Below, piece by piece: positions 6,135-63,762 of a stretch of 64,000 nucleotides of DNA. The translations under genes and the position numbers were made by a program. The notes under the pieces were generated by a model. It searched no databases, was not told the DNA's origin, and saw only the letters and a list, made by a program, of their open reading frames with translations. Positions within the stretch are counted from its first letter, which is position 1, and each line of letters opens with the position of its first letter. The stretch comes from Methylococcaceae bacterium (lineage in GTDB: Bacteria > Pseudomonadota > Gammaproteobacteria > Methylococcales > Methylomonadaceae), in contig JBAQSX010000061.1 of the NCBI GenBank assembly GCA_049296695.1, forward strand, positions 1-64,000, read 5' to 3'.

Positions 6135-6146
6135 AGTGTTACCTTT

Positions 6147-6755: not shown

Positions 6756-7438
6756 TAGTGATGCCCTCCGTCTTCACCATGTGAAATTGACATGATTTTA
6801 AATTCCACTTTTTCTTGTTGTTGCGGTTTCCATTGACGTATACCCCAGATTAATAATCCAATCAAAAAGAATGCACTAGGTGGTAATAACATTAAACCAT
6901 TAGGTTGATACCAGCCGCCGTCTTTAATTAACGGGAATACTTCAATCCCTAATAATTTACCTGAGCCTAATAATTCACGAACAAAAGACACGGTAATTAA
7001 AATTAAGCTATAACCCAAACCGTTACCAATACCGTCCATAAAACTGGCTAAAGGCGGATTTTTCATCGCGTAACCTTCAGCACGTCCCATAACGATACAG
7101 TTAGTAATAATCAAACCCACAAATACCGATAATTGTTTGCTTACATCAAAAGCAAAGGCTTTTAATAATTGGTCAACGACAATTACTAATGAAGCAATAA
7201 TAGTCATTTGTACAATAATACGAATACTGCTGGGAATATGATTACGAATTGCACTAATTGCCGCGCTAGAAAACGCAGTTACTAAGGTTAATGCCAACGC
7301 CATAATGAGTGAGGTTGACATTTGCGATGTCACCGCTAATGCCGAACAAATACCTAATACTTGCAAAGTAATAGGATTGTTTTCAACTAGCGGTTCAATT
7401 AATACTTTTTTAGTTTCATCATTGAATAATTCACTCAT
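6755..7438 (-). CDS. nqrD: Na+-NQR subunit D
   Basis: 227 aa membrane protein; start overlaps nqrE stop. Confidence 0.9.
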
Positions 7439-39912: not shown

Positions 39913-39994
39913 AATAGAATAATGACAAGCTAAGTAGTGACCATTGAAATAATTATAAAGACGTTGCGGTGCAACGTCTCTACCCATTTAAACC

Positions 39995-48173: not shown

Positions 48174-50696
48174 ATGAGTACCGCAAAAGAAGAACGCCTG
48201 ATTTTAGCGTTCAAATTACATTCAAAAGTCAATCCCGACCAAGGTAATTTAAGACCTGTCGCCGAAATTATTGACAATAAACTAATAGAATTAAACCCCA
48301 TTAATTTTTGTCATACCAATAAAATTTTTGTCACCGTTGGCTATCAAAATGTTAATGAAAAATTCAAAGAAGGACAATTATTTAGAATACCCGTCAACGT
48401 TGCCGAATATATTAGTACCAATGTAGACCCCTATGCCGCGTCTAAATATGTCACCCAAGGTATTAAAGCAGAACGTTTAAAACCCAATGAATTAGTTGAA
48501 ATAATAGAAGCTGAATTACCTGATAGTAATCATCGTTATGTTGAAATCGGTTATTATCCTAGCACTGAATATATTTTTATTCGCAACAGTGATAGGGATT
48601 GCTTTGGACCTTTTTCGTGGGAACGCAAAGAAGGTGAATCGGGTTTTTATTTATCACTACTCAATGATACCCCCTTATTACGCGCTTACAATATTAGTTT
48701 AGGACAAATATTTAAAATCGATAATGACAGTTTTGAAAACTATGTGTTTGATTGTCAAACCGTGGATAGATATTATCAATTAGTATTAAACATCCATGAT
48801 TTTTTAGAAAACGCCCAGTATTATGAATATGCCTCTGATGAAGAAATTGTACGTTATTGCGCTAAATTAGCAGGCGAAATGGGAACAATGGTTTTTTCTA
48901 AAACCAGTTGGGATGGTTTTAGAAAACTCGCGGTTAATAACGCGCCCTTTGATCAAGGTTTAGGTCGAGAGCGTTTAGCGCGATTATCCAATCTCGCTTC
49001 TGATATTTTTGTAATACAAGAAGATATTCGTGACAATATTGAACGCTTTTTAAGAAGCAATAATGGCGAGCATTTAATTCAAGATTTTATTGAACGCAAA
49101 CGTCCGCAATTATTAGATGAACTGCGCCGCAGTGTCTTAAAAGAAAAAGACAAAGATTTAGAAGAAAAAGAAGATAAGGTTTATCAAATTGAACAGCGTC
49201 TTAAAGATAAAGACAAAGAATTAAAAGAACTCAGTGCCGAAGTTGAACGCAAACGCAAAGAAGCCAATCAAGAGGTTATTTTAGAACATGCCGTGGCGGG
49301 GCGTAATGAAACCGTACAACAATTAGAACAATTAATTGCTGATAAAGAAAAACAATTAACTGATATTAATGAACGCCTCAATTTAGTCTCAGAACTTGTC
49401 GATATTCATCAGAAAATCGAAGAAGGCAAAGTGATTTACAAGCATTATGAAAAAGAAAATGCCTTAATTGTCGAAACCACTAAAAAATTAAAATTAGAGC
49501 GCGATAAAACCGAAGATGAATTACGCACTAAGTTAATTGAATTAAAACCTTTTGTGGAATATATCAACGGTTCATACTTTAGTAATAACAGCGAAAAAAC
49601 AAAATCGGTTTTTGTTGAAATTAATAACCAAAATTACAACGATGTCTTAGAACAACAACGTTTAGTAGTTGAATCAGTTAAACATAATCTACGTTTAAAT
49701 GGGCGTTATTTTGAATCATGGCAAGTAGCGAATTTATTAATCTCCACCCAACAATCCTTTATTACCTTTTTAGCAGGATTACCCGGCGTTGGTAAAACCT
49801 CATTAGCGCGATTATTAACCCAATCACAAGGTTTAAAACCCCGTTTGCAAGAAGTATCAGTAGCGCGGGGTTGGACTTCACAAAAAGATTTAATTGGTTT
49901 TTATAATCCATTAGCGAATCGTTTTCAATCCGCCAATACAGGTTTATATAGTTTTATTGAAGCTTTAAGTGCTGAGAAAAAAGATGAACAGGCAATGGCT
50001 TATGTATTATTAGACGAGGCGAATTTAAGTCCAATTGAACATTATTGGTCAGCCTTTATGGCAATGGCAGACGGCGAAGGGGCAAGAGAATTACGCTTAG
50101 GACAAGATACTTTAACCGTGCCTTCAGTATTACGCTTTTTAGCCACCATTAATTATGACGGTACTACTGAGCCATTAAGTCCACGAGTAGTAGACCGCGC
50201 CCCAGTTATTATTATGGAAAGCTCTGGGGCATTATCAGATGATAATGAAGTTATTAATCAACAATTAATTAACTTGCCCTTATCAGCGGGTGAAATGACT
50301 AAATTATTTGGTTTGGCAAAACAAATACCTGCTTTTCAAAATGATGAGGCGGTTATCTTTAATAAATTACGGCAAATACTCGCTGACCCTAATTTAGAAA
50401 AAGGTCGTCCTTTGAGTATTAGCCAACGTAAAGAAATTGTGATTCGGCAATATTGCGCTCAAGCCAGTTCATTAATGCGCTCCTTTGGTTGTGATGATTT
50501 TAAAGCCTTAGATTTAGCGATTTTGCAACATGTATTACCTCAAGTGCGCGGCACAGGGCATAAATTCGCTAGCCGTTTAGTTGAATTAAAACAAAGTTGT
50601 GATAATGAAGGTTTAAAAGAATCGGCGGCTTATTTAGAAAGAATGCTCGCTTATGGTGAAACAGAATTACATTCTTATGATTTCTTTTGCTGGTAA
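48174..50696 (+). CDS. McrB-like AAA+ (AAA_5) GTPase subunit with ~500-aa N-terminal extension containing a long coiled coil (CoCoNuT CnuB-like)
   Basis: 840 aa; Walker A GLPGVGKTSLARLL (~aa 530), Walker B VLLDEANLSPIEHYW, sensor/Arg-finger region ATINYDGTTEPLSPRVVDRAPVI analogous to McrB TMNTADRS...RRRF; residues ~300-450 K/E-rich heptad coiled coil. Confidence 0.75.
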   Translation: MSTAKEERLILAFKLHSKVNPDQGNLRPVAEIIDNKLIELNPINFCHTNKIFVTVGYQNVNEKFKEGQLFRIPVNVAEYISTNVDPYAASKYVTQGIKAERLKPNELVEIIEAELPDSNHRYVEIGYYPSTEYIFIRNSDRDCFGPFSWERKEGESGFYLSLLNDTPLLRAYNISLGQIFKIDNDSFENYVFDCQTVDRYYQLVLNIHDFLENAQYYEYASDEEIVRYCAKLAGEMGTMVFSKTSWDGFRKLAVNNAPFDQGLGRERLARLSNLASDIFVIQEDIRDNIERFLRSNNGEHLIQDFIERKRPQLLDELRRSVLKEKDKDLEEKEDKVYQIEQRLKDKDKELKELSAEVERKRKEANQEVILEHAVAGRNETVQQLEQLIADKEKQLTDINERLNLVSELVDIHQKIEEGKVIYKHYEKENALIVETTKKLKLERDKTEDELRTKLIELKPFVEYINGSYFSNNSEKTKSVFVEINNQNYNDVLEQQRLVVESVKHNLRLNGRYFESWQVANLLISTQQSFITFLAGLPGVGKTSLARLLTQSQGLKPRLQEVSVARGWTSQKDLIGFYNPLANRFQSANTGLYSFIEALSAEKKDEQAMAYVLLDEANLSPIEHYWSAFMAMADGEGARELRLGQDTLTVPSVLRFLATINYDGTTEPLSPRVVDRAPVIIMESSGALSDDNEVINQQLINLPLSAGEMTKLFGLAKQIPAFQNDEAVIFNKLRQILADPNLEKGRPLSISQRKEIVIRQYCAQASSLMRSFGCDDFKALDLAILQHVLPQVRGTGHKFASRLVELKQSCDNEGLKESAAYLERMLAYGETELHSYDFFCW

Positions 50697-50702
50697 AAAC
50701 CC

Positions 50703-52409
50703 ATGAAAATAACCCTATTCATGGGCAATGAAACACGAGTTTTTAATAATCAGCATGAAATCTATAGTATTCATGCCGATGAAACCGTGTATTTTGAATT
50801 AAGCTTCGCATCGCCCAGTGATGATAGTCCTAGTTTATTTATTGAAGACCATGAATTAGTATTAACGGCTTATCATAAGGATAATGAAACTAAAGTATTT
50901 CGTTCTGAACCTAGCTGTATTTTTCATGAATTTTTTGGTTTAGTGATAGCGCGGCTTTATATTAATGAGCAGTGTATTGAATGTCGTTTTGATGTCAGTA
51001 TTAAAAAAAGCCAAGCGGTTCAAGTTGAACAAATGATTGGCTATTTAACGCAACAACAAGATGAAATTATGCGGATATGTTTAGCCACCACGCCTGTGAA
51101 TAATGCCGCGAATACTGACCCTGAAAAATTATTAACCACCGCTGAAACTTTTGTTAATACTTTAATGGCTTGTCGTTTAGAATTACAAAGCCATTTACGC
51201 AAACGTTTAATTCCTGTCAAACAAGCCGCGTGGAAATCTGAGCAACAAAGTGATATTGACCCCTTTGATATTATTTTTAATTTAGACGCATTAGAACCCG
51301 TATTAGGCGGCGGTGATGTCATTGTTAATGGGCGTAGTTTTACCATTAAAGATACCGAAATTACCAGCTTAACCGAAACCGCTAATGTCAGTGAAAATAC
51401 CATTTTATTAGGCGGCATTTATTCAATGCGGCGATTAATTAATCATTTATTACTAGCATTAAATCAAGCCGTTGCTAGCAATAAAAAAGAATTAGTTGTT
51501 GAAATAGAATATGAATCCTTAGCACAAGTTTTATTACGCGTCACTGCCTTTAAAATAAAACACCGCTCAGAGCAGTTATTATTAAGACTAGAAGAATTTA
51601 TCCGTTATTTTGAACATACTTTAAAAATTAATTATAACGGTGAACAACGTCCAATCATGACTCCTTTTGTGCGGGCTTCGCGGGTTTATCGGCGGTTATT
51701 TGAACAATTACACGACTGGTATTTATGCAATGAAGCCTCGCTGGAAAGTCGTAATTATTTAGCTAAATTACGCTCAGTTACCAAGCTTTATGAATTGGTG
51801 AGTTTATTTAAACTTATTGATTATTTGAATGCTAAAAATTGGCAAGTCACGCACACGCAATGGCTTTCTGAAACAGAATTTGTGCCGTCATTATTAGTAT
51901 TTGAGCGTGAGGATTTAAAATTAACCCTGCATTATGAAGCTAAAATATTTGCTTATGATGAAAATACTCGGCATTTAGATTTAGTCGATGTTAAGCATTC
52001 ACGTTTTAGTCATGACTATAATTATTGGTGTCCTGATTTTATTGTGCGTTTAGAGAATACTAAGAAAACCGCTTATTTTATTTTAGATGCTAAATATAGC
52101 TCAGCCGAAAGTATTAAACATCAGTATTTGCCGAGTTTATTAGAAAAGTATTTTATGAATATGGCAGTTTATGATGCTAATCGACAAGTATTAAGCCAAG
52201 AGCTTATTATGGGCATTATTGCTTTATTTCCAGATAAGGAATTGGCAAGCCCTGTATATATGTATAACTCGGCTAAATATGGGATTTATAAACAACCGTT
52301 AAAATTACCGATTATTACAGGTTTTCCGCTTACTTCGGTGTCGGATAAAATCACTTATCCATTATTAGATAGGTTATTTGAGATTATTGAAGGGCAATTA
52401 CATTTTTAA
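50703..52409 (+). CDS. McrC-like PD-(D/E)xK nuclease subunit with N-terminal extension
   Basis: 568 aa; starts 7 nt after the upstream McrB-like stop; C-terminal D...CPDFIV...ILDAKY motif equivalent to McrC PD...(D/E)xK. Confidence 0.7.
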   Translation: MKITLFMGNETRVFNNQHEIYSIHADETVYFELSFASPSDDSPSLFIEDHELVLTAYHKDNETKVFRSEPSCIFHEFFGLVIARLYINEQCIECRFDVSIKKSQAVQVEQMIGYLTQQQDEIMRICLATTPVNNAANTDPEKLLTTAETFVNTLMACRLELQSHLRKRLIPVKQAAWKSEQQSDIDPFDIIFNLDALEPVLGGGDVIVNGRSFTIKDTEITSLTETANVSENTILLGGIYSMRRLINHLLLALNQAVASNKKELVVEIEYESLAQVLLRVTAFKIKHRSEQLLLRLEEFIRYFEHTLKINYNGEQRPIMTPFVRASRVYRRLFEQLHDWYLCNEASLESRNYLAKLRSVTKLYELVSLFKLIDYLNAKNWQVTHTQWLSETEFVPSLLVFEREDLKLTLHYEAKIFAYDENTRHLDLVDVKHSRFSHDYNYWCPDFIVRLENTKKTAYFILDAKYSSAESIKHQYLPSLLEKYFMNMAVYDANRQVLSQELIMGIIALFPDKELASPVYMYNSAKYGIYKQPLKLPIITGFPLTSVSDKITYPLLDRLFEIIEGQLHF

Positions 52410-52457: not shown

Positions 52458-52934
52458 TTAAATATATTGTACTGAAATAATTTCGTATTCAATATTACCG
52501 CTGGGGGCTTTTACGGTGACGACATCTTCAATTTCTTTACCAATTAAAGCACGAGCAATAGGTGAACCCACTGAAATACGTCCTGATTTAATATCCGCCT
52601 CATCTTCACCGACGATTTGATAAGTCACTGTTTCGCCGCTGTCGAGATTTTCTATTTCAACTGTCGCGCCAAATACTACTTTTCCATTTGCATCGACTTT
52701 GGTGACATCGATTATTTGCGCGTTGGATAATTTGCTTTCAATTTCATTAATGCGTCCTTCGGCAAAACTTTGTTGTTCTTTTGCCGCGTGATATTCAGCA
52801 TTTTCTTTTAAATCGCCGTGTTCTCTGGCAGTCGCTATTGCATTAACAATGCGTGGACGGACAACGTGTTTTAATTCATCTAATTCAGCGCGTAATTTTT
52901 CCGCGCCTTTTACGGTTAATGGAACTTTGACCAT
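52458..52934 (-). CDS. greA: Transcription elongation factor GreA
   Basis: 158 aa; canonical GreA N-terminal coiled coil and C-terminal FKBP-like domain. Confidence 0.95.
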
Positions 52935-52960: not shown

Positions 52961-54964
52961 TTATTCTGTAATAACTGTTTTAACTAATAAATTTTTTGCC
53001 AAGTAATCTGAAGCAATAGGGGTTAGATGTCCATAATCCCAACTGGTTATTCCTGTTTTCTTATCATCACCAATTCTTGTTAAACAACCTTTTTCATTGC
53101 AAAAAAGGGCAATTAAATCGATAAAAATTGATTTTTTTGTATTGCTAAATTGGGTTTTAAGATTTTCATTTTCAAGCATTATTTTTTGATCAATGCCTAT
53201 TAGTGTTCTTTCGGGGGTATTATGCCAGATTTTACGCATAATTATTTTAGGTAAATCATCTACCCAATGAGGTGATGGTCCTGTAAATATTATTCTTTTT
53301 ATACCACTTGCTAATAAAAAATCGTTTAATTTATTTAACTCATCAAATTTATGTCCATGCGCTTGGGCAATAATGACTACATTAGGTTTTATTTCCTTTA
53401 TGGTTTCTAAAGCAAATTGATTAGACTTTTGACAATAGTCTTTTGTTATATCACCTTGAATATTAGAATTAGCAGGACAACTAGAACTCGCTACTATTAA
53501 AATTTGCCAATCTTTAGGTAAATTATTATTCAACCCAAAGTATAATTGTTGAGCATGTGAATCCCCCCATATAAACACAATATTTCTCTTTTTTAAATCG
53601 GGATTGGGTGTGTAGCAGCTTTTATCTATTTGCGCTAAAGGTATTCTGGTCACATTGCCAAGACGATACTTTTCAATATCATAAAAATTGCAATCCCCGC
53701 GACATTTTGCAAACATTTCTGTTGTTTTAGAGTAATTCCATTCAGGTTTACTATTTTCAAAGTAATTAGCAAAATCGCTTTTTTCTTGGCTTCTATAGCC
53801 ATATCCTTGCAAACCACCATTTAAATATAAACTATATCCACCAAAACCAACTACTATCATTAAACCCAGTAATAATAAAACTATTTTTTTACTTTTAATT
53901 TTTAAACGAATCGGTCTTTCAATAAATTGATAAGTGAGCCAAGCGAGTAAAATTGAAATTAAAACAATAGTAATACGCAACTCGCGTGGTATTTCGCTTT
54001 CTAAAATTCTCGCAAAGGACAATAACGGCCAATGCCATAAATACAATGGAAAACTAATTAAGCCAAACCATACTAATAACTTATTTGATAAAATTACACG
54101 ATTCAACCACGTTTGCGTACCAGCTGAAATAATTAATGCTGTACCCAAGGTGGGTAATATTGCCCACCAACCAGGAAAATATTTATCTTTAGTAATCAGA
54201 AAAATCCCAGTTGCGATAAATAATACCCCTAAGATAGACTGTAGCGAATTAAAGTGGTTTTTAATATTGGGTAATAAAGTGGGCTTATAAAGCATTAGAT
54301 ACGCTAACATTGAACCTGTTAATAATTCCCAAAAACGCGTTTGTGGCGAATAAAAATCTGCTACAGCGTCCTCGCGTATTTCACTAATGTTGAGCGCGAA
54401 GGAAATAATAAATGCACTAATGGTAATTATTAAAAAATTAAATCTAATCTTCCAAGCAAGCCATAACAACAATGGCCAAATAATATAATACTGTTCTTCA
54501 ATACCTAAAGACCAAAGATGTAATAGTGGTTTGGTTTCAGCGGCATTATCAAAATAACCGCTCTCTTGCCAAAATAAAAAATTTGAAATAAAGCCGGCTC
54601 CACCAGCAACATGTTTTCCTAGTTGTGTATATTCATCAGCAAGTAATGTAAACCAACCTGCAGTAATACAAGCAATTAATACTAATAATAATGAAGGAAA
54701 TATACGTTTAATACGACGGCTATAAAATTCAATGAAACTAAAATTATTGCTTGTTAAATTGTTAAAAATAATGGTAGATATTAAAAATCCCGAAATAACA
54801 AAGAAAATATCAACGCCAATAAAACCGCCTTTAATCCAGTTTGGAAAAGCATGAAACCCTACAACGGATAAAACTGCAATTGCGCGTAAACCGTCAATAT
54901 CTGCACGATATTTAGGATGTGATAGTTCTTTAGAATTAATAGTCATAGTCATAGTCATAGTCAT
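52961..54964 (-). CDS. Acyltransferase family 3 (OafA/OatA-like) membrane O-acyltransferase fused to C-terminal SGNH hydrolase domain
   Basis: 667 aa; N-terminal 10-11 TM AT3 domain ([15 protein letters not shown]), C-terminal SGNH block I GDSHA and block V DYGH; N-terminus MTMTMTMT encoded by (ATGACT)4. Confidence 0.85.
54941..54964. repeat. Hexanucleotide tandem repeat (agtcat)x4 = four in-frame ATG-ACT units at the 5' end of the acyltransferase gene
   Basis: agtcatagtcatagtcatagtcat on + strand. Confidence 0.9.
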
Positions 54965-55032: not shown

Positions 55033-58000
55033 TTACTTCAATCCCTTATGCAAATCCTGCAAACAATTCACATCACCCGCATCTAATTCACCCAAAGCAT
55101 AACAAGCCGCTCTTGCCCCCGCCATTGTGGTGTAATAAGGTACACGATGTTGCAACGCTTCACGGCGCATGGTAAATGAATCCGAAATCGCTTTTGTGCC
55201 TTCGGTAGTATTAATGATTAATTGAATCTGGTCATTTTTAATCATATCCACTGTATTAGGACGACCTTCATTGACTTTATAAACTTCTTCGCAAGGAATA
55301 CCCGCTGATTTTAAATAACGCGCCGTGCCACCTGTTGCCACAATTTCATAATTCTTTGCCACTAACATTTGCGCCACTTCGGGTAATTTTATTTTATCCG
55401 CGTCACGAATACTAATTAATACTTTACCGCTAGTATTCAAATTAATTCCAGCAGCGCGTTGTGATTTAGCAAAAGCTTCACCAAAAGTTTTACCCACACC
55501 CATAACCTCACCAGTGGATTTCATTTCAGGGCCTAATAAAGAATCTACTCCGGGGAATTTCACAAAGGGGAACACCGCTTCTTTGACGGAAAAATAATCA
55601 GGAATCACTTCTTCAGTAATGCCTTGCTGGGTTAAGGTTTGCCCAACCATCACGCGAGCCGCAATTTTAGCGAGTGCGTAACCTGTGGCTTTAGAGACAA
55701 ACGGCGCGGTGCGTGAGGCTCTGGGATTGACTTCTAACACATAAATCTCATCACCTTGAATGGCAAATTGCGTATTCATCAAACCGCGAACGCCCAAAGC
55801 CTCTGCCATTTTGCCGACTTGTTCGCGCAAACGGTCTTGTAATTCGGGTTTTAAATCATAAGGCGGCAACGAACACGCCGAATCGCCCGAATGCACACCC
55901 GCTTGCTCGATGTGTTCCATCAAACCACCGATTAATACCCGTTCACCGTCATAAATCGCGTCTACGTCCATTTCCACCGCATCATCTAAGAAACGGTCAA
56001 GCAGCACAGGCGAATCATTCGACACGCTCACCGCTTCTTTCATGTAACGTTGCAAACCTTCTTCATTCACCACAATTTCCATTGCCCGACCGCCCAACAC
56101 ATAAGACGGACGCACTACTAAGGGATAACCCAAGTCACGCGCCGCATTAATGGCTTGCTCAACCGAACGCGCTGTAGCGTTAGGGGGTTGTTTTAATTGC
56201 AAACGTTCTAATAATTTTTGGAAACGTTCGCGGTCTTCTGCTAAGTCGATTGAATCAGGTGATGTGCCGATAATGGGAACGCCAGCCGCTTCTAAAGCGC
56301 GAGCCAATTTTAACGGCGTTTGTCCACCGTATTGAACAATTACACCTTTAGGTTTTTCTTTATAAACGATTTCTAAAACGTCTTCTAAAGTTAATGATTC
56401 AAAATATAATCTATCCGAAGTATCAAAATCGGTTGATACTGTTTCAGGATTACAATTAATCATAATGGTTTCATAACCATCTTCGCGCAACGCTAATGCC
56501 GCATGAACACAGCAATAATCAAATTCAATACCTTGTCCAATGCGATTAGGGCCGCCGCCTAAAATAATAATTTTTTCTTTGTCAGATACTCGCGCTTCAC
56601 ATTCCTCTTCATAAGTTGAATATAAATAAGCAGTATCAGAAGCAAATTCAGCCGCGCACGAATCTATACGTTTATATACAGGACGTATATTATTTTTATG
56701 GCGAATATTTCGCACTTCTATTTCAGAGGCATCTAATAATTGCGCTAAGCGTAAATCAGAAAAACCTTTGCGTTTTAATTGATACAATTCACCCGCTTTT
56801 AAAGTCGATAAGGTTTTTGTTTTTAAGGATTGCTCAATTAAAACTAAGTCTTCTAATTGCGCTAAAAACCACGGGTCTATTTTACATAAACCATGTATTT
56901 CTTCTAAAGATAAACCTTTACGAAACGCATCGGCAACATAACGCAATCTATCAGGGCCAGGGTGTCTTAATTCACGTTTAATTCTATCGTAAGCATCATT
57001 AGCATGAATATCAATAATTTCATTCAATCCACAAATACCAATTTCTAAACCGCGTAATGCCTTTTGCAATGATTCTTGGAAGGTGCGCCCAATTGCCATT
57101 ACCTCGCCCACGGATTTCATTTGCGTGGTTAATCTATCATCGGCTTGCGGGAATTTTTCAAAAGTAAAACGTGGTACTTTTACTACGACATAATCAATTG
57201 CAGGTTCAAATGAGGCTGGGGTTTTACCGCCTGTTATTTCATTTTTTAATTCGTCTAAGGTATAACCAACAGCGAGTTTTGCCGCGACTTTAGCAATAGG
57301 AAAACCCGTAGCTTTTGAAGCCAAAGCCGAAGAGCGTGATACTCTAGGATTCATTTCAATAATAATCATGCGACCATCAACAGGATTAATCGCCACCTGT
57401 ACATTTGAACCGCCAGTATCTACGCCTATTTCTCTTAATATCGCTAAAGAAACATTACGCAGGATTTGATATTCTTTATCAGTTAGTGTTTGCGCGGGCG
57501 CGACAGTTATTGAATCCCCAGTATGTACACCCATTGGGTCAAAGTTTTCAATTGAACAAACAATAATACAATTGTCTTTTGAATCTCGCACCACTTCCAT
57601 TTCATATTCTTTCCAACCCAATACCGATTCTTCAATTAATAATTCATTAGTGGGTGATAAATATAAACCGCGTTCGCAAATCTCCATAAATTCTTGCTTA
57701 TTATAAGCAATACCACCGCCACTACCGCCCATTGTAAATGAAGGTCTAATAACTGTGGGATAACCGACTTCTTTTTGCGCGAGCAACGCTTCTTCCATTG
57801 AATGCGCGGTTTTTGATTTAGCCACTTCATAACCAATTCGCGCCATTGCGTCATTAAATAATTGACGGTCTTCGGCTTTATTAATTGCCTCTTTAGTCGC
57901 GCCTATCATTTCAACATTATATTTAGCCAATACCCCGTGTTTATCTAAAGCCAAGGCGCAATTTAATGCGGTTTGTCCGCCCATTGTCGGTAATATCGCA

Positions 58001-58251
58001 TCGGGGCGTTCTTTGGCAATAATCTTTTCTACGGTTTGCCAATCAATTGGCTCAATATAAATCGCGTCCGCCATGTCGGGGTCGGTCATAATAGTGGCGG
58101 GATTAGAATTAACGAGGATGACTCGATAACCTTCTTCGCGTAGGGCTTTACAGGCTTGTGTGCCTGAATAATCAAATTCACACGCTTGCCCGATAACAAT
58201 AGGGCCTGCACCTAATAATAAAATGGATTTTATGTCTGTTCTTTTTGGCAT
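55033..58251 (-). CDS. carB: Carbamoyl-phosphate synthase large subunit
   Basis: 1072 aa; duplicated ATP-grasp domains, canonical CarB. Confidence 0.97.
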
Positions 58252-58458
58252 GGTTTACCGCTTTGTTTTAAGTTAATTATAATGAGTTTGAGCGATTATT
58301 TTAAAATATCGCCGTGAATAGGATTAATAACTCTTTTTGGTAGTAGTAAAAATAGAGTGATTATTAATATAGATTAATTGGTAGAGACGTTGCAGTGCAA
58401 CGTCTGTACAATCGAAGTATTTTAAGAAATCACTCACTGTTTAGCACTACCATTCTTT

Positions 58459-58641
58459 TCAACTTTGATTAAAATCTGAATTATCAATCCCTTGTTCAAT
58501 AATTATATGATGGTAATCAAGGCTAGTATTGTGACTCGCTTCTTTTTCTGATACTAAGTAATGAATACCCAGTCTTTTAAATAACAATAATAACAGTTTT
58601 TCATCTTCGTTATTTTCAATATCTAAGGTTATTTGTAACAT
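58459..58641 (-). CDS. Small hypothetical protein (60 aa) immediately downstream of HEPN gene
   Basis: ORF starts 2 nt after HEPN stop; acidic; no recognisable motif. Confidence 0.3.
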   Translation of the reverse strand: MLQITLDIENNEDEKLLLLLFKRLGIHYLVSEKEASHNTSLDYHHIIIEQGIDNSDFNQS

Positions 58642-58642
58642 A

Positions 58643-59092
58643 TTAACCTCCCGTTGTATTTAATAAGTTATTACCATAAACTAAAGTATTCTGCACAATA
58701 ATAATTAATTCAGCCGTTAAAGTTTTAGCCTCAGCAAACAGAGCAATTAAATCCTCTTCAATATATTCGTGGACAATTTCGTTTCTTAAATCTTTTATGT
58801 TTCTAATTAAATCCATGCTAGTAAATAACTTTCTTTTATGTGCGTTATTGACCACATCAATTAATGTCCCTTGATGCTCAAATTCGCACGCATCAATAGT
58901 TCTAAACACTTTACGGATTAAAAAATCAATGGTTCTAGCAAAACGACTGCACAAGTTTTCATAATGATTAATACTCTCTATTGATAGCTCTTGGGTTAAA
59001 TCAACGTTATTGATTTGTGAGTAGGAATAATCTAACCAAAATAATTGTTTTTCTAAAAGGTCTAACTGGGTTTTTAATAAATCTAAGCTCAT
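58643..59092 (-). CDS. HEPN-domain protein (HepT-like toxin of MNT/HEPN pair)
   Basis: 149 aa; RNEIVHEY = R-x4-H HEPN catalytic motif; 4-nt overlap with upstream MNT gene. Confidence 0.7.
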   Translation of the reverse strand: MSLDLLKTQLDLLEKQLFWLDYSYSQINNVDLTQELSIESINHYENLCSRFARTIDFLIRKVFRTIDACEFEHQGTLIDVVNNAHKRKLFTSMDLIRNIKDLRNEIVHEYIEEDLIALFAEAKTLTAELIIIVQNTLVYGNNLLNTTGG

Positions 59093-59373
59093 AATTCTAT
59101 AGCGGTAGGAAAAATTAATCTAACAAAAGGTGATTCCAGTTTTCCTGAGTCGATAATTATATCTATTTTCTGTTCACCAAAGGTTTCATAAAACTGCCAT
59201 TTTATCGTTCGCAGGTGTTGTTTGCTTAATTGCTCAGAGAGGATTAATAAATCTATATCGCCACCTGTTTTGGTATCATCGGTGCGACTGCCAAATAAAA
59301 ATAGACGGGCGTTTTTATCTAATTGTTGCGTAGTGGTTTTTAATAGATTTATTTGTGCTGGGCTGAGGCGCAT
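59089..59373 (-). CDS. Minimal nucleotidyltransferase (MntA-like antitoxin)
   Basis: 94 aa; LFGSRTDDTKTGGDIDLLIL = GS...D.D nucleotidyltransferase motif. Confidence 0.8.
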   Translation of the reverse strand: MRLSPAQINLLKTTTQQLDKNARLFLFGSRTDDTKTGGDIDLLILSEQLSKQHLRTIKWQFYETFGEQKIDIIIDSGKLESPFVRLIFPTAIEL

Positions 59374-59395
59374 AACTTAAGTTGATGCTTTTTAT

Positions 59396-60322
59396 TTAGT
59401 TAATAAGTATAGAATTCAAATATTCTATTAAACAATCAGGAGTCTCAGCATAACCTGAAAAAAGTTCTATTGCTTGCTCATTGCTTAATTTAGAACTAAA
59501 AGAAAACTTTATTTTCTCTTTGAAATATTTTTTTTGATTATTTGAGTCTTGCAAAATCAAGTCAATTATAGTAACTACAAACCACATTTCATATTTTCCT
59601 CTAAATATTTTTCGACATTCACAATTAGAGAACTCAATAATTTTTTTATTTAAATTATCTTGTGAAACTTCAAGTGCAGTAGGGAAGTTTTGCTGTATTG
59701 TTTCAAGTGTATAATTTTTAGAGATAGATTCTAAAGTAAACGTTATAAAGTTTCTTGTTTCTCTATCACCGCCTAATTTATCGCTCAAATTAACACCTGT
59801 TTCTTTTTTTTCTATATTTTTAATATCAATTAGACTAGCATACCAAGCATTAAATAAAAATATCGCTTGATGAAATTCATTCTGTCTTTGAGTATAAAGA
59901 TTTAAACACATTTGATAAGCTTCACTAACTTCTGATAATCCTAAAGAGTTTTTTATAATTTCTCTGAAAACATTTACAGATGTATAAAAATTTTCAATCG
60001 AATAATAAGGAGTTTCAAAAATATCTGGATTTATTAAAGGTTTATCAAAGTCTCTATCTATAAAAAAAGCTTTTTTATACTTTTTATATTCTGTATGAAT
60101 TGATATTAAACGGTAAACAGTTAATACTTTATCTTTACCACCACATTTTATTGGATAGTAGTTTTCTGTAAACCGCTTTATCCTTGGAGAATAATAAGGA
60201 CTATCTTTTCCCTCAAAAAAACAAAATAAACCTGTTTTATTTTGATTTATATGAAGCATAAATTCTTGATAAGCAACTTGAGGTTTATCTCGACCTTTTC
60301 TCAGTTCTTCTAAATAAGTCAT
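59396..60322 (-). CDS. DUF4435/TOPRIM-like protein (PARIS AriB-like)
   Basis: 308 aa; conserved Glu (FCFFEGKD) and DxD (FFIDRDFD) consistent with divergent TOPRIM; directly downstream of an ABC-type ATPase. Confidence 0.55.
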   Translation of the reverse strand: MTYLEELRKGRDKPQVAYQEFMLHINQNKTGLFCFFEGKDSPYYSPRIKRFTENYYPIKCGGKDKVLTVYRLISIHTEYKKYKKAFFIDRDFDKPLINPDIFETPYYSIENFYTSVNVFREIIKNSLGLSEVSEAYQMCLNLYTQRQNEFHQAIFLFNAWYASLIDIKNIEKKETGVNLSDKLGGDRETRNFITFTLESISKNYTLETIQQNFPTALEVSQDNLNKKIIEFSNCECRKIFRGKYEMWFVVTIIDLILQDSNNQKKYFKEKIKFSFSSKLSNEQAIELFSGYAETPDCLIEYLNSILIN

Positions 60323-60324
60323 TA

Positions 60325-61683
60325 TTAAACAATAATATTTTTTGATAATGTAATATATTGATCTAAACCAATAGCATATTCATCCAATTCGTTTTCAAAA
60401 ATAAAAGGAGAGTGTGTAACTGCTAACAAAAAGTCGCATTTTTTAGATTTAAGCACATCTGGAAGTAATTGTTTTTGCCATATCATGCTTAAAGATAACT
60501 CTGGCTCATCAAATAAGACTATGAACCGTTCTTCTTTAGAAAGATAAACTTTAGAAAACATTGAAACTATTTGTTTTTCACCTGATGAAAGATACTTCAA
60601 TAAGATTTCGTCATTCGTCAAGCTTGATTTAATAAAAATTTTTATTGCGCTTTCATCATAAAATACTTTCTTCCCTATTAAATAATTATTACAAACATCC
60701 TTAAATGTTTTTATTGAATTATCAAGTTCTTTTTGTTTTTCATAAATTTCGATTAATTTCTTCAAAAAATATAATGAATAAGGATTCGTTATTTTTTTAT
60801 TCATAACGATATTTCTTATATTATCTTTATCTGCTTTAGGGAGTTGATTACCGACTCTTGCCAATATAATATCAATACCATTCTCATCAATTTTATCTAA
60901 ACAACTATTGTCATTTCCTTCAAAGCCATTAACTAACTGGCTCATAAATTCTGATGTAATTTTTGAAAAGCCTTCTTTCAATAATTGGTCAATTTCATGT
61001 TCAATGCTTCTAAATCTTTTAGACACATCATCCATGCCAAAATGAATAACAGTATCTTCTTCATCCAATAAGTTATCTTCATCGTAACCAAGATTATGTA
61101 AATCTTCTTCTACACGTCTAAAAGTTGGAAAATAAAGCACCTTTAAATCTTTAATTTCAGATCTAATTTTTTTTCTACAAGTATCTAAAACTTTACCTAA
61201 ACTTCCTTCTTTATTAAGCATTTCGAGTTCCTCAAGTACCCGAAAAACATGGTGCGTAGGATATTTTCTTATTTTTGAACCTAAGAGCTTTTCATCCAGT
61301 CGCCGCCAATCACCTTTGCTCTTAATAAACTCATTTCTAAGTAATTCAAAGCGAGAAAATCCAATATCATTTATCAGCTCTTCTAAAATGGGGTGTTTGT
61401 ATAGCCTTTTAATCAATTCGTCTATATTATTTTTGTGTATTTCAATAGAATTTCCTTTTGAAAAAGTCAATTGAACTCTATTAAAGTTAAATTCACTTAA
61501 TCGGGGGAAATTTTGAGTTAATATATAATAAAAAATATTCAGAACTTGTGTTTTTCCAAGTCCATTTTCACCAATCAAAATTTTAATATTTTCGTTAAAA
61601 AGAATATGTACATCATGTGTACCAAAAAGACCATACACTGAAAAAGATTTAATTGGACTTAGAGTATTCATGTTTATTCTCAA
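60325..61683 (-). CDS. ABC/OLD-family AAA ATPase (AAA_15/AAA_21-like; PARIS AriA-like)
   Basis: 452 aa; N-terminal IKSFSVYGLFG...IKILIGENGLGKTQVLN (Walker A), C-terminal Walker B/H-loop IVLFDEPELSL...LLAVTHSP. Confidence 0.65.
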   Translation of the reverse strand: MRINMNTLSPIKSFSVYGLFGTHDVHILFNENIKILIGENGLGKTQVLNIFYYILTQNFPRLSEFNFNRVQLTFSKGNSIEIHKNNIDELIKRLYKHPILEELINDIGFSRFELLRNEFIKSKGDWRRLDEKLLGSKIRKYPTHHVFRVLEELEMLNKEGSLGKVLDTCRKKIRSEIKDLKVLYFPTFRRVEEDLHNLGYDEDNLLDEEDTVIHFGMDDVSKRFRSIEHEIDQLLKEGFSKITSEFMSQLVNGFEGNDNSCLDKIDENGIDIILARVGNQLPKADKDNIRNIVMNKKITNPYSLYFLKKLIEIYEKQKELDNSIKTFKDVCNNYLIGKKVFYDESAIKIFIKSSLTNDEILLKYLSSGEKQIVSMFSKVYLSKEERFIVLFDEPELSLSMIWQKQLLPDVLKSKKCDFLLAVTHSPFIFENELDEYAIGLDQYITLSKNIIV

Positions 61684-61750
61684 TTTATCTTATAAAAAAT
61701 TTTACAGGTGTTAGCTAAGCAATTTATTGCTAACTTCGATTTTCAATTTG

Positions 61751-62338
61751 TCAAAACCTAACATCTTCATAAATATCACCCAACTTCAAAACCGTTTGAT
61801 AATTCTCACAACGAATCAACAATTCTTCATTGTCTTCTAATAAAGCCGTTTGCCATTCATTATGGTTATCACGCACATAATACTCACAACGTTTTTTATT
61901 AGCATCAATGAGTAAATAATAACGCAAACTAGGCAGACTTAAATAAGCCAGTAACTTTTCTCTACGGTCTATTTTTGCGGTGCTATTGGATAATACTTCG
62001 GTAATTAAACAAGGTTTTTCTTTATAGTATTCTTGGTTGTCTTCAGTATCACAAACTAATAACACATCAGGATAATAATAAGCATTATGCTGGGCGATTT
62101 TGAGTTTCATATCACTCATAAACACGCCGCATTGCCCACCCCGCGCAGATGAGCGTAATTGAAAAAAGATATTACCTGCAATGCGATTATGCCGCTCACT
62201 CGAGCCTGCCATTGCATAAATATAACCGTCTTTATATTCATGCCGAATGGTAGCGGTTAATTCAAAATCTAAATAATCTTGCTCGGTTAAATAAGGGATT
62301 TTTTGCAAGGCGGTCATAGTATTAACCTCATTTAGCAA
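61751..62338 (-). CDS. Uma2-family (DUF820) PD-(D/E)xK endonuclease
   Basis: 195 aa (possibly starting at M8); Y.DG.IYAMAGSSERHNRI...PDV Uma2 signature. Confidence 0.75.
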   Translation of the reverse strand: MLNEVNTMTALQKIPYLTEQDYLDFELTATIRHEYKDGYIYAMAGSSERHNRIAGNIFFQLRSSARGGQCGVFMSDMKLKIAQHNAYYYPDVLLVCDTEDNQEYYKEKPCLITEVLSNSTAKIDRREKLLAYLSLPSLRYYLLIDANKKRCEYYVRDNHNEWQTALLEDNEELLIRCENYQTVLKLGDIYEDVRF

Positions 62339-62384
62339 TGAATCAGATTATTAAACCTAATTCATTGCTTATTTAAAACGTGAG

Positions 62385-63509
62385 TTACCCAGCGTTATCC
62401 ATCATTTCAATAAACTTATCGAATAAACTTTCCACATCATGCGGCCCGGGGCTGGCTTCGGGGTGTCCTTGGAAACTAAACGCAGGGCAGTCGGTGCGTG
62501 CGATGCCTTGCAAACTGCCATCAAATAAAGAGTGATGCGTGGCAATTAAATTAGCAGGTAAGCTGGTTTCATCAACGGCAAAACCATGATTCTGACTGCT
62601 AATCATCACCCGACCTGTGGCTTTTTCCTGCACAGGGTGGTTTGCGCCGTGATGACCGAATTTCATTTTTTCCGTTTTCGCGCCGCTGGCTAAGGCTAAT
62701 AATTGATGCCCTAAACAAATGCCAAACACAGGCAACTGGGTTGCTAAAATGGTTTTAATGGCTTCAATGGCGTAAGTGCAAGGCTCAGGGTCGCCCGGGC
62801 CGTTAGATAAAAATACGCCATCGGGGTTCAGGGCAAGCACTTCGCTGGCGGGGGTTTTGGCGGGAACAACGGTGACTTTGCAACCGCGATTAGCCAGTAA
62901 CCGTAAGATATTGCGTTTCACGCCAAAGTCATAAGCGACAACGTGTTTCGTTAAGTTGGGCGCAGTCTTGTGTCCATCGCGTAAATGCCAGATGTTTTCT
63001 GTCCAAGTGTAGCTTTCGCTGGTGGTGACTTCTTTGGCTAAATCCAAACCTTTTAAACCTGCAAAACCTGCAATCGCGCTAGTCGCCGTTGCCACGTCTA
63101 GGTTTTCCCCCGCAATAATACAACCGCGTTGCGCGCCTTTATCACGCAGGATACGCGTTAATTTGCGCGTGTCGATTTCAGCGATAGCGACTACGTTGTT
63201 ATCAATCAAATACTGTTGCAAAGTTTTTTCACTGCGCCAATTGCTTGCCAGCAAAGGCAAGTCCCGAATCACTAAACCACCGACAAACACGCCGCGTGAC
63301 TCGTCGTCTTCGCTGTTTGTGCCGGTGTTGCCAATGTGCGGATAGGTTAAGGTGACTATTTGCTGGGCGTAAGAGGGGTCGCTGAGAATTTCTTGATAAC
63401 CGCTCATAGCGGTGTTAAACACCACTTCGCCCACGCTACAACCGTCTATACCTATGGAAACACCGTTAAATACTGTGCCGTCTTCTAATACTAATAATGC
63501 TGAAATCAT
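62385..63509 (-). CDS. carA: Carbamoyl-phosphate synthase small subunit (glutamine amidotransferase)
   Basis: 374 aa; GATase catalytic GICLGHQ motif. Confidence 0.95.
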
Positions 63510-63762
63510 TAAACCCCGTCCTTATACATGAAAAACGGGATACACCCTCTTGAGCGCATCCCGTCATAGAATTATCAATGTGTGCAATTTTACGAGATTA
63601 TAAGGCTTTGGTCATTAACATTTTGCCGTTGTGTGATAAGCGGTGTGTGTTGTTAGTGTGATAACTGATATTAAGCTGTTTTAAAAATCCCTGTCCCTTT
63701 TGCTAAAAGGTGAATTTTAAAACTGCCTCACTTCATTTAAACAATTCAATTGTCTGAATCAG

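Follow-up and report, generated by a model that had tools for sequence, protein, structure and literature searches.

How does a biosynthetic operon come to carry defence genes between its two subunit genes? In the window, a 64,000-nucleotide stretch of contig JBAQSX010000061.1 from a Methylococcaceae bacterium, carA and carB are separated by 4.1 kb that hold six genes, ordered Uma2, AriA, AriB, MNT, HEPN and a 60-aa ORF from carA to carB, all on the minus strand like car itself (Table 1). A first-pass annotation had placed six minus-strand ORFs here, and their coordinates were confirmed. It had also presented the split as abnormal, which the comparison upheld: in 156/156 other informative loci, drawn from a CarA similarity search, carA lies next to carB, with gaps of at most 1441 bp (median ~54 bp) in 79/79 genome loci and 77/77 metagenome loci. 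ORFs found between carA and carB elsewhere belong to the LysE family in Pseudomonas-like, Aquitalea and Rhodocyclaceae loci, or are PDDEXK_3 ORFs, a different small PD-(D/E)XK gene that fills the gap in Thiodiazotropha, Endothiovibrio and others. Like the window, these cases show that the junction tolerates inserted co-oriented genes, but each consists of one gene of 0.4-0.75 kb, either housekeeping-type or small with a nuclease fold, whereas the window holds stacked defence/TA modules. An ORF between carA and carB of P. aeruginosa was reportedly described by Kwon et al. in 1994, and the Neisseria carA-carB intergenic sequence is said by Lawson et al. (1995) to be large and variable.

Table 1. 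Features between and including carA and carB, listed from carA towards carB (positions in the window; L162 is the nearest relative, L175 is Crenothrix polyspora).
Feature	Position	Strand	Evidence or remark
carA, carbamoyl-phosphate synthase small subunit	62385..63509	-	TIGR01368 1.6e-143; upstream slot boundary
Hairpin in carA-Uma2 spacer, 16-bp stem, no U tract	62334..62369	-	dG -24.2 kcal/mol, z -5.7
Uma2/DUF820 PD-(D/E)XK-fold nuclease gene	61751..62317	-	PF05685 6e-32; PADLOC PDC-S03 3e-27
PARIS cassette	59381..61759	-	no homology to L162 (blastn blocks; breakpoints read directly); GC 0.26-0.27
ariA, ABC-type ATPase sensor/scaffold of PARIS	60325..61671	-	PADLOC AriA 6.5e-30; AAA_15
ariB, DUF4435/TOPRIM nuclease effector of PARIS	59396..60322	-	PF14491 4e-49; PADLOC AriB 1e-44
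MNT, minimal nucleotidyltransferase, type VII HEPN/MNT antitoxin	59089..59373	-	PF01909 1.9e-6
Predicted HEPN-fold RNase toxin (HI0074/HepT-like), 149 aa	58643..59092	-	Foldseek, motif, profile
60-aa ORF	58459..58641	-	59% identity over 58 aa to L175 o78
116-bp stretch (20 bp in L162)	58336..58451	-	carries dispersed palindrome
carB-proximal leader	58252..58335	-	promoter-like TTTAAA-18-TATAAT
carB, carbamoyl-phosphate synthase large subunit	55033..58251	-	NF003671 1767 bits; downstream slot boundary

Profile matches bore out the identities first proposed for Uma2, the ABC-ATPase with its DUF4435 partner, and MNT, while that of HEPN follows from its fold. Uma2, with invariant D84 and E107, likely starts at ATG 62317 (188 aa) and AriA at ATG 61671 (448 aa), both in agreement with independent gene calls on L161, a Logan assembly (SRR28062826). 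The PADLOC HMMs, alignment to 8UX9 and an AF2 match identify the ABC-ATPase and its DUF4435 partner as a genuine PARIS system. AriA aligns to that of E. coli B185 (8UX9_B, E 1e-13) and displays Walker A (GENGLGKT), signature (LSSGEKQ), Walker B (VLFDEPELSL) and H-loop (THSP) motifs. The AriB model has the AriB chain 8UX9_A as its single significant PDB match (E 4e-4, prob 1.0, TM 0.51), and across its family E37 and D91 do not vary. Named relatives of AriB (<=66% identity) are mostly from cyanobacteria and Bacteroidota, Methylovulum reaching only 57%. Like PARIS of E. coli B185 (Rousset et al. 2022, PMC9122126; Burman et al. 2024, PMC11464382), the system consists of a pair of neighbouring genes in the same orientation, the ABC ATPase gene preceding that of the DUF4435/TOPRIM nuclease. 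Unlike it, AriB is very diverged (13% identity in structural alignment), a Uma2 gene comes first, and the setting is not a P4-like satellite or prophage hotspot but a biosynthetic operon on the chromosome.

MNT, in which a GS...DIDLL motif is visible, forms with HEPN an intact type VII toxin-antitoxin pair. As in HI0073/HI0074, Aphanizomenon 7AE2/7AE6/7AE8 and Shewanella MntA-HepT (6M6U/5YEP), the small MNT overlaps a downstream ~150-aa all-helical HEPN by 4 bp, and the HEPN carries the RNxxxHxY motif with its tyrosine invariant (R103-N104-x3-H108-x-Y110, all invariant). Unlike known pairs, this HEPN, from a family of hundreds of mostly unannotated members, had zero HMM matches in Pfam, NCBIfam, PADLOC and PHROGs. 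The top 22 PDB matches of its AF2 model (pLDDT 92) were all HI0074 or HEPN toxins of MNT-HEPN pairs, led by 1JOG, 7AE6, 8XDJ, 8XEH and 6M6U (TM 0.66-0.79), and HI0074 was also the best PDB match of its profile, across the motif. The 149-aa protein is, on its modelled fold, a predicted HEPN toxin. The third small ORF, which follows HEPN, belongs to a different, eroded module. Its Crenothrix polyspora homolog lies, together with a PIN gene that follows it, between Uma2 and carB, and the ORF itself appears to be an orphan, C-terminally shorter homolog of the PIN toxin's upstream (antitoxin-position) partner. Further towards carB, the 116-bp stretch carries a palindrome, AGACGTTGCA-C-TGCAACGTCT, at 58385-58405 (dG -16.7, z -2.9), with a second copy at 39956-39983 of the window where 0 are expected by chance. 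It looks like the insertion of a REP-like element.

The insert had been described as visibly poorer in GC than carA and carB. Overall this is so (0.291 vs 0.485 for carA and 0.413 for carB), both car genes being GC-rich against the window background of 0.378 +/- 0.043 (43 reference genes). AriB (0.257) and AriA (0.274), 2.4-2.8 sd below the window's genes, and the 60-aa ORF (0.268) are low against that background as well, HEPN (0.300) marginally so, whereas Uma2 (0.357) and MNT (0.361) cannot be told apart from host genes. The foreign composition is confined to part of the insert.

Among the comparison loci, mostly metagenome contigs of uncertain taxonomy, Uma2 homologs (65-91% identity) lie directly after carA in six further lineages, seven with this genome. 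All share a carA-Uma2-X-carB(-greA) slot in which X differs by lineage and all cargo genes share the strand of car. X is a Panacea module plus MNT/HEPN in L162, an antitoxin plus ParE in L163-165, a lone small ORF in L166-167, HicB-like plus HicA in L168-170, a small ORF plus PIN in L175, and Mrr_N debris plus a second Uma2 in L086. Uma2 thus appears to be the slot's constant first gene in one Methylobacter/Crenothrix-like subclade. L162 (CarA 94% identical) has Uma2, MNT (96%), HEPN (95%) and the 60-aa ORF (o58, 91%) in common with the window, at protein identities of 91-96%. In blastn the two loci share three homology blocks and differ solely by a swap at 59381-61759, with a 1287-bp Panacea-type module as the counterpart of PARIS and a left breakpoint 9 nt before the Uma2 stop codon, and by the 116-vs-20-bp element. 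Relative to L162, what is specific to this genome is limited to the 2379-bp PARIS segment and, upstream of carB, a repeat element of ~96 bp. The first-pass annotation had named the same intervening genes in all related genomes as the mark of an ancestral arrangement, and this applies in part: L162 has Uma2, MNT, HEPN and the 60-aa ORF at this position, but not PARIS.

The dN/dS ratios of these four shared genes (0.17-0.24; Uma2 0.24, 60-aa ORF 0.17) indicate that they are maintained by selection. Synonymous divergence along the locus is mosaic (carA 0.48, Uma2 0.25, MNT/HEPN 0.10, carB 0.21), the low MNT/HEPN value resting on ~15 synonymous differences, and this pattern fits recombination. In neighbour-joining trees, built without support values, Uma2-bearing and Uma2-less loci are interleaved. 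CarB of Uma2-bearing L163 is 96.8% identical to that of Uma2-less L082 and ~91% to those of other Uma2-bearing loci, and CarA of Uma2-bearing L086 is 92.5% identical to that of Uma2-less L081. Uma2 and CarA identities are incongruent (L163-L166, CarA 92% and Uma2 75%; L163-L086, CarA 87% and Uma2 83%). No Uma2 scar was found in the Uma2-less spacers.

Taken together, these data lead us to favour, with a probability of about 0.65, a carA-carB spacer that is an operon-embedded defence/TA hotspot led by Uma2 and filled in layers, not by one insertion. Uma2 after carA would be a presence/absence polymorphism restricted to the subclade, with different small modules behind it by lineage, always on the car strand. 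In the window, the oldest, carB-proximal layer would be the 60-aa ORF, as an orphaned remnant of a VapB-position antitoxin; the second, the MNT/HEPN pair; and the third, next to Uma2, the low-GC PARIS, the REP-like element just upstream of carB standing apart. PARIS appears to be the newest, foreign layer, recently and horizontally acquired, because the Panacea module takes its place in L162, where Uma2, MNT-HEPN and the small ORF are all present. The oldest-distal, newest-proximal order was seen in three comparisons (the window, L162 and ERZ1426841) and could be coincidence.

The original proposal, in which an AT-rich defence islet of ~4.1 kb entered an ancestrally intact carAB operon recently and in one piece, is now very improbable. 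It would suit the adjacency of carA and carB in all 156 other loci and the GC step from flanks of 0.41-0.49, but it does not accommodate Uma2 at the same position with different cargo in six other lineages, an L162 locus that shares everything except PARIS, or the host-like GC of Uma2 and MNT. Moreover, neither repeats flanking the insert or its cassettes nor integrase/transposase family members among the six genes were found. We give hardly any credence to an assembly or binning artefact, in which foreign DNA would have bridged carA and carB falsely in the contig. The sequence does come from a metagenome-assembled genome, and the dispersed repeat lies just upstream of carB, where the independent L161 contig ends. 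Against this, L161 is 100% identical over 5107 bp, carA through the 60-aa ORF, and this arrangement is therefore not a misassembly; a single L162 contig independently covers carA-Uma2-...-MNT-HEPN-ORF-carB and is 95-96% identical on either side of the repeat, and carA-Uma2-X-carB is spanned in five other lineages.

Two further readings give Uma2 itself a role. That it acts as a landing pad or active insertion module, creating and maintaining the hotspot as promoter-less cassettes enter preferentially at its 3' end, attI-like, is unlikely. The lineage-specific cassette is Uma2-proximal in all three comparisons, the PARIS/Panacea breakpoint falls at the Uma2 3' end, Uma2 homologs elsewhere lie 3-52 bp behind a co-oriented gene (L168, L171, L173, L176), and a PDDEXK_3 gene fills the gap in Thiodiazotropha, Endothiovibrio and others. 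However, the sample is small, the sequences behind the Uma2 stop at eight loci have no conserved motif, cassette-flanking repeats were not found, ordinary homologous recombination also yields homology ending at a conserved gene's end, and Uma2 is not known to have recombinase activity. Quite unlikely, too, is a functional three-gene PARIS variant, Uma2-AriA-AriB, with Uma2 as accessory effector, sensor or regulator and the car-locus Uma2 co-opted or co-arrived. Uma2 does match the PADLOC candidate PDC-S03, and the two closest PARIS relatives found, like the window's, lie immediately 3' of a Uma2 gene: ERZ1426841 (AriB 83%), where HicAB follows, and L176 (AriB 69%, AriA 52%), in a dcw operon between mraY and a murD-like gene, where Uma2 ends 16 bp ahead of AriA. 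Yet Uma2 occupies the car site without PARIS in six lineages, in the window as in L176 its GC is host-like and that of AriA/AriB far lower, and between these two operon contexts Uma2 (only 22-29% identical) is far more diverged than AriA or AriB. Distant PARIS loci in viral contigs have no Uma2, and two genes suffice in published PARIS (PMC11464382).

How would genes of such a layered hotspot be expressed? Because the array is compact, with tight spacers and all genes co-oriented, and has no convincing terminator (no excess, none strong or significant), read-through from the carA promoter probably accounts for at least part of the transcription of the cassette genes and carB. The earlier suggestion that the insert genes hitchhike on car transcription is thus plausible. 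No deeply conserved carB promoter was seen across the relatives compared; the leader is conserved with L162 but not with L163, L166 or L168. Its promoter-like site (58305-58276) matches at 10/12 positions, although shuffled versions of the region contain just as many promoters; its TATAAT lies 25 nt before carB and could mark a genuine promoter. The carA-Uma2 hairpin (0/200 shuffles as stable) is conserved in L162, the spacers of L086 and L166 having unrelated hairpins; it is possibly an RNA processing/stability element or partial terminator and, with the REP-like palindrome, could attenuate read-through. Judging from their families, AriA would hold AriB in an inactive state; once a phage anti-restriction protein had set it free, AriB would cleave tRNA and infection would be aborted; MNT would neutralise the HEPN RNase by AMPylation.

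In mechanism, though not in membership, the slot resembles integron cassette arrays: promoter-less co-oriented cassettes stacked behind an upstream promoter and a fixed gene, to which the newest apparently lies closest, with TA modules as frequent cargo. Unlike integrons, it has no tyrosine-recombinase integrase or attC-like repeats, and Uma2 is a PD-(D/E)XK-fold protein. A closer parallel is offered by cDHS1 and cDHS2 of Pseudomonas aeruginosa, core defence hotspots between conserved genes (Johnson et al. 2023, PMC10250203), which likewise have one conserved flanking-gene pair, defence/TA cargo varying by genome, empty sites in some relatives, and can be recognised without mobile-element genes. 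By contrast, the carA-carB slot is smaller (0.6-4.1 kb vs medians of 6-26 kb), is situated not between operons but inside a co-transcribed biosynthetic one, and holds strictly co-oriented cargo behind a constant first gene, Uma2. We conclude that the slot is a variant of the core-gene-flanked defence/TA hotspot, in which cassettes would turn over, probably by recombination between relatives, with carA/Uma2 and carB serving as homologous flanks.

Six minus-strand ORFs separate carA from carB in the window, and the coordinates given to this arrangement in the first-pass annotation were matched exactly by a mechanical ORF list. We surveyed the carA-carB gap by a CarA-based scan of species-representative genomes (79 informative loci) and metagenome contigs (77). 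Across all 156 informative loci, the gap never exceeds 1441 bp, and its median is about 54 bp. Within 10 kb, the surveyed loci contain none of the six genes, with the single exception of L086, a locus whose 2.6-kb contig holds no carB. Methylococcales are the closest relatives in these scans (CarA identity of 79-85%), no relative above 85% emerged from either the genome or the metagenome scan, and exact-sequence look-ups of CarA and CarB returned no record. Proteins identical to the window's HEPN and AriB are recorded from an NCBI MAG titled 'Methylococcaceae bacterium'. A misassembly or chimeric join is excluded, because an independent Logan assembly (SRR28062826, L161) is 100% identical across window positions 63491-58385; L161 and the nearest relative, L162, which was reached solely via a Uma2 homolog search, each show the arrangement independently.

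Gaps above 0.3 kb typically contain one co-oriented gene. In Aquitalea, a Rhodocyclaceae MAG and three metagenome contigs without assignment (L037, L074, L100, L120, L134; gap of about 700 bp), it encodes a LysE-family transporter of about 217 aa. In Thiodiazotropha, Endothiovibrio and other Gammaproteobacteria (L026, L030, L126; gap of about 470-500 bp), it is a PDDEXK_3 (PF13366) gene of about 130 aa, also present at the carA-carB junction of L173 (11192-11587). PDDEXK_3 is thereby a second PD-(D/E)XK-fold family at this junction, unrelated to Uma2. Sequence between carA and carB has reportedly been described in Neisseria and in P. aeruginosa.

Coordinates, strands and assignments of the window features
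Feature	Coordinates	Strand	Match or characteristics
carA	62385-63509	minus	TIGR01368, 1.6e-143
Leader hairpin	63534-63565	minus	14-bp stem then UUUUU; 25 nt before carA start codon; dG -23, z -4.7
Uma2/DUF820	61751-62338; likely start ATG 62317, 188 aa	minus	PF05685, 6e-32; PADLOC candidate PDC-S03, 3e-27
ariA	60325-61683; likely start ATG 61671, 448 aa	minus	PADLOC AriA, 6.5e-30, best defence-library match
ariB (DUF4435/TOPRIM)	59396-60322	minus	PF14491, 4e-49; PADLOC AriB, 1e-44
MNT	59089-59373	minus	PF01909, 1.9e-6, above gathering score
HEPN, 149 aa	58643-59092	minus	Fold and invariant motif
carB	55033-58251	minus	NF003671, 1767 bits
AT3 + SGNH acyltransferase	52961-54964	minus	PF01757, PF19040; GC 0.315; between carB and greA
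greA	52458-52934	as listed with the acyltransferase	
Pair of large neighbouring ORFs, 840 and 568 aa	48174-50696, 50703-52409	plus	No Pfam match
Two overlapping low-GC ORFs	3720-4097, 4081-4848	minus	GC 0.27-0.29, GC3 0.14-0.20

The first gene after carA was annotated as Uma2/DUF820, an assignment upheld by a score of 110.9 bits against PF05685 (cutoff, 27) and by a conserved acidic core, the nuclease role being putative. Residues E27, D84, E107 and K121 are invariant, even in the distant paralog of the metagenomic locus L176, and the protein matches PDB 9Y1L (E = 1e-5). The start codons chosen for Uma2 and AriA agree with independent gene calls on L161. The following pair, initially described as an ABC-ATPase plus a DUF4435/TOPRIM protein, was confirmed as AriA and AriB by PADLOC, Pfam and PDB matches, with ariA directly upstream of ariB on the same strand and a 2-nt spacer. 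AriA matches the E. coli B185 AriA (8UX9_B/8V45_A, phmmer E = 1e-13), and its Walker A (GENGLGKT), signature (LSSGEKQ), Walker B (VLFDEPELSL) and H-loop (THSP) motifs are aligned and intact. For AriB, sequence-only PDB searches returned nothing significant, and the identity was settled by fold search: the sole significant PDB match of the AF2 model (pLDDT 83) is 8UX9_A, the AriB chain of the PARIS complex, over its full length (E = 4e-4). The catalytic TOPRIM glutamate of E. coli AriB is E26, together with an acidic DxD. Across 29 homologs of the window protein, E37 and D91 never vary and D89 hardly does; these candidate counterparts lie within the expected FFEGKD and FIDRDF motifs. PARIS, as published, is a two-gene system in which AriA hexamers restrain AriB, a phage anti-restriction protein acts as the trigger that frees it, and the AriB dimers then cut tRNA, halting translation (PMC11464382). 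By family assignment, the window AriA and AriB would follow the same course of trigger, release and tRNA cleavage.

The next two genes form an MNT/HEPN pair, a type VII toxin-antitoxin arrangement, with the MNT gene first, a 4-bp overlap, and the pair also present in L162. The minimal nucleotidyltransferase call is sustained by the PF01909 match, and the motif FGSRTDD...GGDIDLL is visible in the sequence; against the NCBIfam MntA equivalog the protein scores 18 bits, below cutoff. The 149-aa partner has no match in four HMM libraries, and a sequence-only PDB search returned nothing significant. Its identity was resolved by structure prediction and fold search: the model is all-helical (pLDDT 92), and the top 22 PDB fold matches in Foldseek (including 1JOG, 7AE6, 8XDJ, 8XEH and 6M6U) are HI0074 or HEPN toxins of MNT-HEPN pairs, so that the original HEPN call was borne out despite the lack of any HMM match. 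R103, N104, H108 and Y110 are invariant among 35 homologs, forming an Rx4-6H motif with the tyrosine of the AMPylated type. As assigned from the family and from the matched PDB entries, MNT would neutralise the HEPN RNase by AMPylating this tyrosine, the mode of neutralisation that Songailiene and Yao reportedly described in 2020. Finally, the 60-aa ORF shows 59% identity across 58 residues with a 78-aa gene preceding a PIN toxin in Crenothrix (L175). We interpret it as an antitoxin-position gene that has become an orphan, being shortened and having lost its toxin.

Was this set of genes acquired as one AT-rich defence islet of about 4.1 kb, as first proposed? As a whole, the insert is indeed lower in GC (29.1%) than carB (41.3%) and carA (48.5%), which are themselves among the GC-richest genes of the window. 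Measured against 43 other window genes (0.378 +/- 0.043), however, this holds only in part: AriB (0.257), the 60-aa ORF (0.268) and AriA (0.274) are low-GC outliers and the HEPN gene weakly so (0.300), whereas Uma2 (0.357) and MNT (0.361) are host-like. The insert is compositionally heterogeneous, which was the earliest hint against its being a single unit. Alignment to L162 (carA-Uma2-SocA_Panacea-143aa-76aa-MNT-HEPN-58aa-carB) gave three collinear blastn blocks, with protein identities of 94% for CarA, 98% for the CarB N-terminus, 91% for Uma2, 96% for MNT, 95% for HEPN and 91% for the small ORF. Only two differences were found. Window positions 59381-61759 (2379 bp, AriA and AriB) are replaced by a 1287-bp Panacea module, with one breakpoint 9 nt ahead of the Uma2 stop codon and the other 7 nt ahead of the MNT start codon, and positions 58336-58451 (116 bp) by 20 bp. 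These boundaries came from L162; junction spacers of genus-level relatives were not alignable and mapped no insertion boundary. In that module, at L162 6818-8047, a SocA_Panacea gene precedes two ORFs of 143 and 76 aa that match no family; together they are a candidate toxin-antitoxin module of the Panacea type, its toxin being unclassified. Since L162 keeps Uma2, MNT, HEPN and the small ORF around another module in the PARIS position, insertion of a single islet is very unlikely. The interpretation of a defence and toxin-antitoxin insert between carA and carB stands; its unity is not supported, given the varied cargo among relatives. From carB outward, the locus reads as layers: an antitoxin remnant by carB, then MNT/HEPN, then PARIS by Uma2.

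The Uma2 homolog search returned many Methylococcales proteins at 60-91% identity. All five homologs with at least 65% identity and an examined context sit between carA and carB, and those at 60% or below lie at other sites (L171, L173). The gene orders are carA-Uma2-71aa-ParE-carB-greA in L163-165, carA-Uma2-69aa-carB-greA in L166-167, carA-Uma2-HicB-like-HicA-carB-greA in L168-170 and carA-Uma2-78aa-PIN-carB-greA in Crenothrix polyspora (L175). In L086 (CarA 84%), a Uma2 homolog (70%) directly follows carA, then come Mrr_N-like debris and a second Uma2-like gene. Overall, the stretch from carA/Uma2 to carB comes in seven cargo variants, comprising PARIS, MNT/HEPN, ParE, HicA, PIN, SocA_Panacea and Mrr_N fragments, and every gene in every variant lies on the car strand. 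Close relatives (L001, L002, L005, L081, L082) have empty sites.

To place Uma2 itself, we compared its distribution with CarA and CarB trees and identity matrices. Loci with and without Uma2 are interleaved in one Methylobacter/Crenothrix-like subclade: the CarB of L163, which has Uma2, is 96.8% identical to that of L082, which lacks it, 95.9% to that of L166, which has it, and about 91% to those of other Uma2-bearing loci; likewise, the CarA of L086 (with Uma2) is 92.5% identical to that of L081 (without). Uma2 is absent from the outer Methylococcales sampled (Methylomonas, Methylotuvimicrobium, Methylomarinum and three metagenome contigs). Uma2 and CarA identities are incongruent, at 75% and 92% between L163 and L166 and at 83% and 87% between L163 and L086. 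Synonymous divergence from L162 is a mosaic along the locus (carA 0.48, Uma2 0.25, MNT/HEPN about 0.10 from small counts, carB 0.21), suggesting recombination, and dN/dS values of 0.17-0.24 for Uma2, MNT, HEPN and the small ORF indicate that these genes are not decaying. The simplest reading of these comparisons would be that the presence or absence of Uma2 is a polymorphism confined to one clade and maintained with recombination, and that Uma2 is not simply ancestral at carAB. A search for a Uma2 scar or remnant in the empty carA-carB spacers gave only noise, so that repeated loss and repeated gain would both fit.

The nearest non-self relatives of AriB lie on contigs at 80-83% identity. Named relatives do not exceed 66% and come mostly from filamentous cyanobacteria and Bacteroidota, with Methylovulum psychrotolerans reaching only 57%. 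This distribution, together with the low GC, supports a probable horizontal acquisition of PARIS. A plasmid search with AriB gave one match (29%); viral contigs gave none with the single sequence and three distant PARIS loci, all without Uma2, with the profile. The contig of the 83% relative (ERZ1426841) reads Uma2(191 aa)-AriA-AriB-68aa-HicA, with PARIS directly 3' of Uma2 and a different distal toxin-antitoxin module. In L176 (AriB 69%), from an unrelated metagenomic genome, the trio lies inside the dcw operon (ftsL-ftsI-murE-murF-mraY-Uma2-AriA-AriB-murD-like), at 6039-8933 between mraY and the murD-like gene, and AriA starts 16 bp past the Uma2 stop codon. There, Uma2 is 22-29% identical to the car-locus proteins, and GC follows the pattern of the window (Uma2 0.36, AriA 0.25, AriB 0.29, flanks 0.42). 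That the two closest PARIS relatives found adjoin the 3' end of Uma2, one of them in another essential operon, points to a non-random linkage. Chance recurrence is unlikely, and either functional cooperation or preferred insertion behind Uma2 would account for it.

We then considered how the inserted genes might be expressed. From carA to carB, the spacers are 67, 79, 2, 22, -4, 1 and 207 nt. A scan for promoter-like and terminator-like sites was uninformative (36 against 34.9 in shuffles, and 7 against 6.6), and the carB-proximal sequence, putative promoter included, is conserved only with the nearest relative. In Pseudomonas, carA-carB-greA form one transcript with a leader terminator (PMC4997734); the window likewise has a hairpin and U tract before carA, which could be an attenuator like the Pseudomonas P32/carA leader terminator, or the terminator of the upstream gene. 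An Rfam scan of 52-64 kb gave just sub-threshold eukaryotic families and left this hairpin unmatched. Because the insert is compact and co-oriented, with no terminator excess and no wider carB-proximal conservation, and given the Pseudomonas transcript, we infer that the car promoter drives at least part of the transcription of the cassette genes and of carB. A strong hairpin after carA (dG -24, no U tract) and a REP-like palindrome could modulate read-through, and a TATAAT before carB may supply a local promoter. The palindrome, AGACGTTGCA-C-TGCAACGTCT, lies at 58385-58405 in the extra DNA just upstream of carB. The pattern AGACGTTGCA-N-TGCAACGTCT occurs twice in 64 kb where zero copies are expected by chance, the other copy (39956-39983) lying between a JAB-domain gene and RNase PH. 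Since it recurs and the L161 contig stops at the 58385 copy, it probably represents a REP-like dispersed family of this genome.

Several known arrangements resemble this locus. An integron array follows a similar logic, but both of its defining features are absent: there is no integrase and no attC site, and the fixed gene is Uma2. No recombinase was found among the family-matched genes of the insert and its flanks (45-64 kb, a range in which Pfam leaves the ORFs at 48174-52409 unmatched), nor did we find attC-like inverted repeats or any repeat family bounding the cassettes. An integrative island or mobile element is not supported, as none of the six genes is a mobility gene and no flanking direct repeats exceed chance, the direct and inverted repeats bounding the insert being just short, AT-rich, two-copy, chance-level matches; a 24-nt inverted repeat (75%) around Uma2 lacks conservation in L162. 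There are no phage genes, and origin from a prophage or satellite was discarded on that ground. The core-gene-flanked hotspots of P. aeruginosa (PMC10250203) share conserved flanks, varied defence and toxin-antitoxin cargo and empty sites with the car slot, which differs from them in being very small, within an operon, strictly co-oriented and always opened by Uma2. A further, tentative reading, to which we give roughly one chance in five, is that Uma2 genes in housekeeping operons, here carAB in the window and dcw in L176, organise an undescribed type of cassette site. Promoter-less defence or toxin-antitoxin modules, including a specific PARIS subclade, would be captured directly 3' of Uma2 and expressed by operon transcription, with Uma2 aiding insertion or exchange by nuclease activity or working with the cassette. 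Across eight loci, the sequence behind the Uma2 stop codon shows no shared motif.

Other parts of the window also carry unusual genes. In L163, L166, L168 and L175, carB is directly followed by greA; in the window the acyltransferase gene lies between them, so that the carA-carB-greA array is interrupted a second time. The 840-aa ORF matches the PADLOC candidate defence protein PDC-M26A (3e-25), and a further defence system may lie beyond greA. The overlapping low-GC ORFs at 3720-4848, unmatched in both Pfam and PADLOC, may represent a further foreign insertion.

PARIS, HEPN/MNT and Uma2 are all established families, and defence hotspots flanked by core genes have likewise been described. What goes beyond them is, first, a hotspot inside a normally tightly linked biosynthetic operon with all cargo co-oriented, second, its constant opening by a Uma2 gene and, third, the adjacency of related PARIS systems to Uma2. 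Uma2 is among the most abundant uncharacterised nuclease-fold families; PADLOC lists it merely as candidate PDC-S03, and the top-ranked papers mentioning Uma2 included no functional study. The car locus therefore offers a concrete, testable context for its function. In Methylococcales, a carA-carB distance above 1.5 kb provides a simple search handle for new small defence and toxin-antitoxin modules. Owing to the operon location and co-orientation, the defence and toxin genes would be wired to arginine- and pyrimidine-responsive transcription, and carB expression would depend on passage through the cassette genes.
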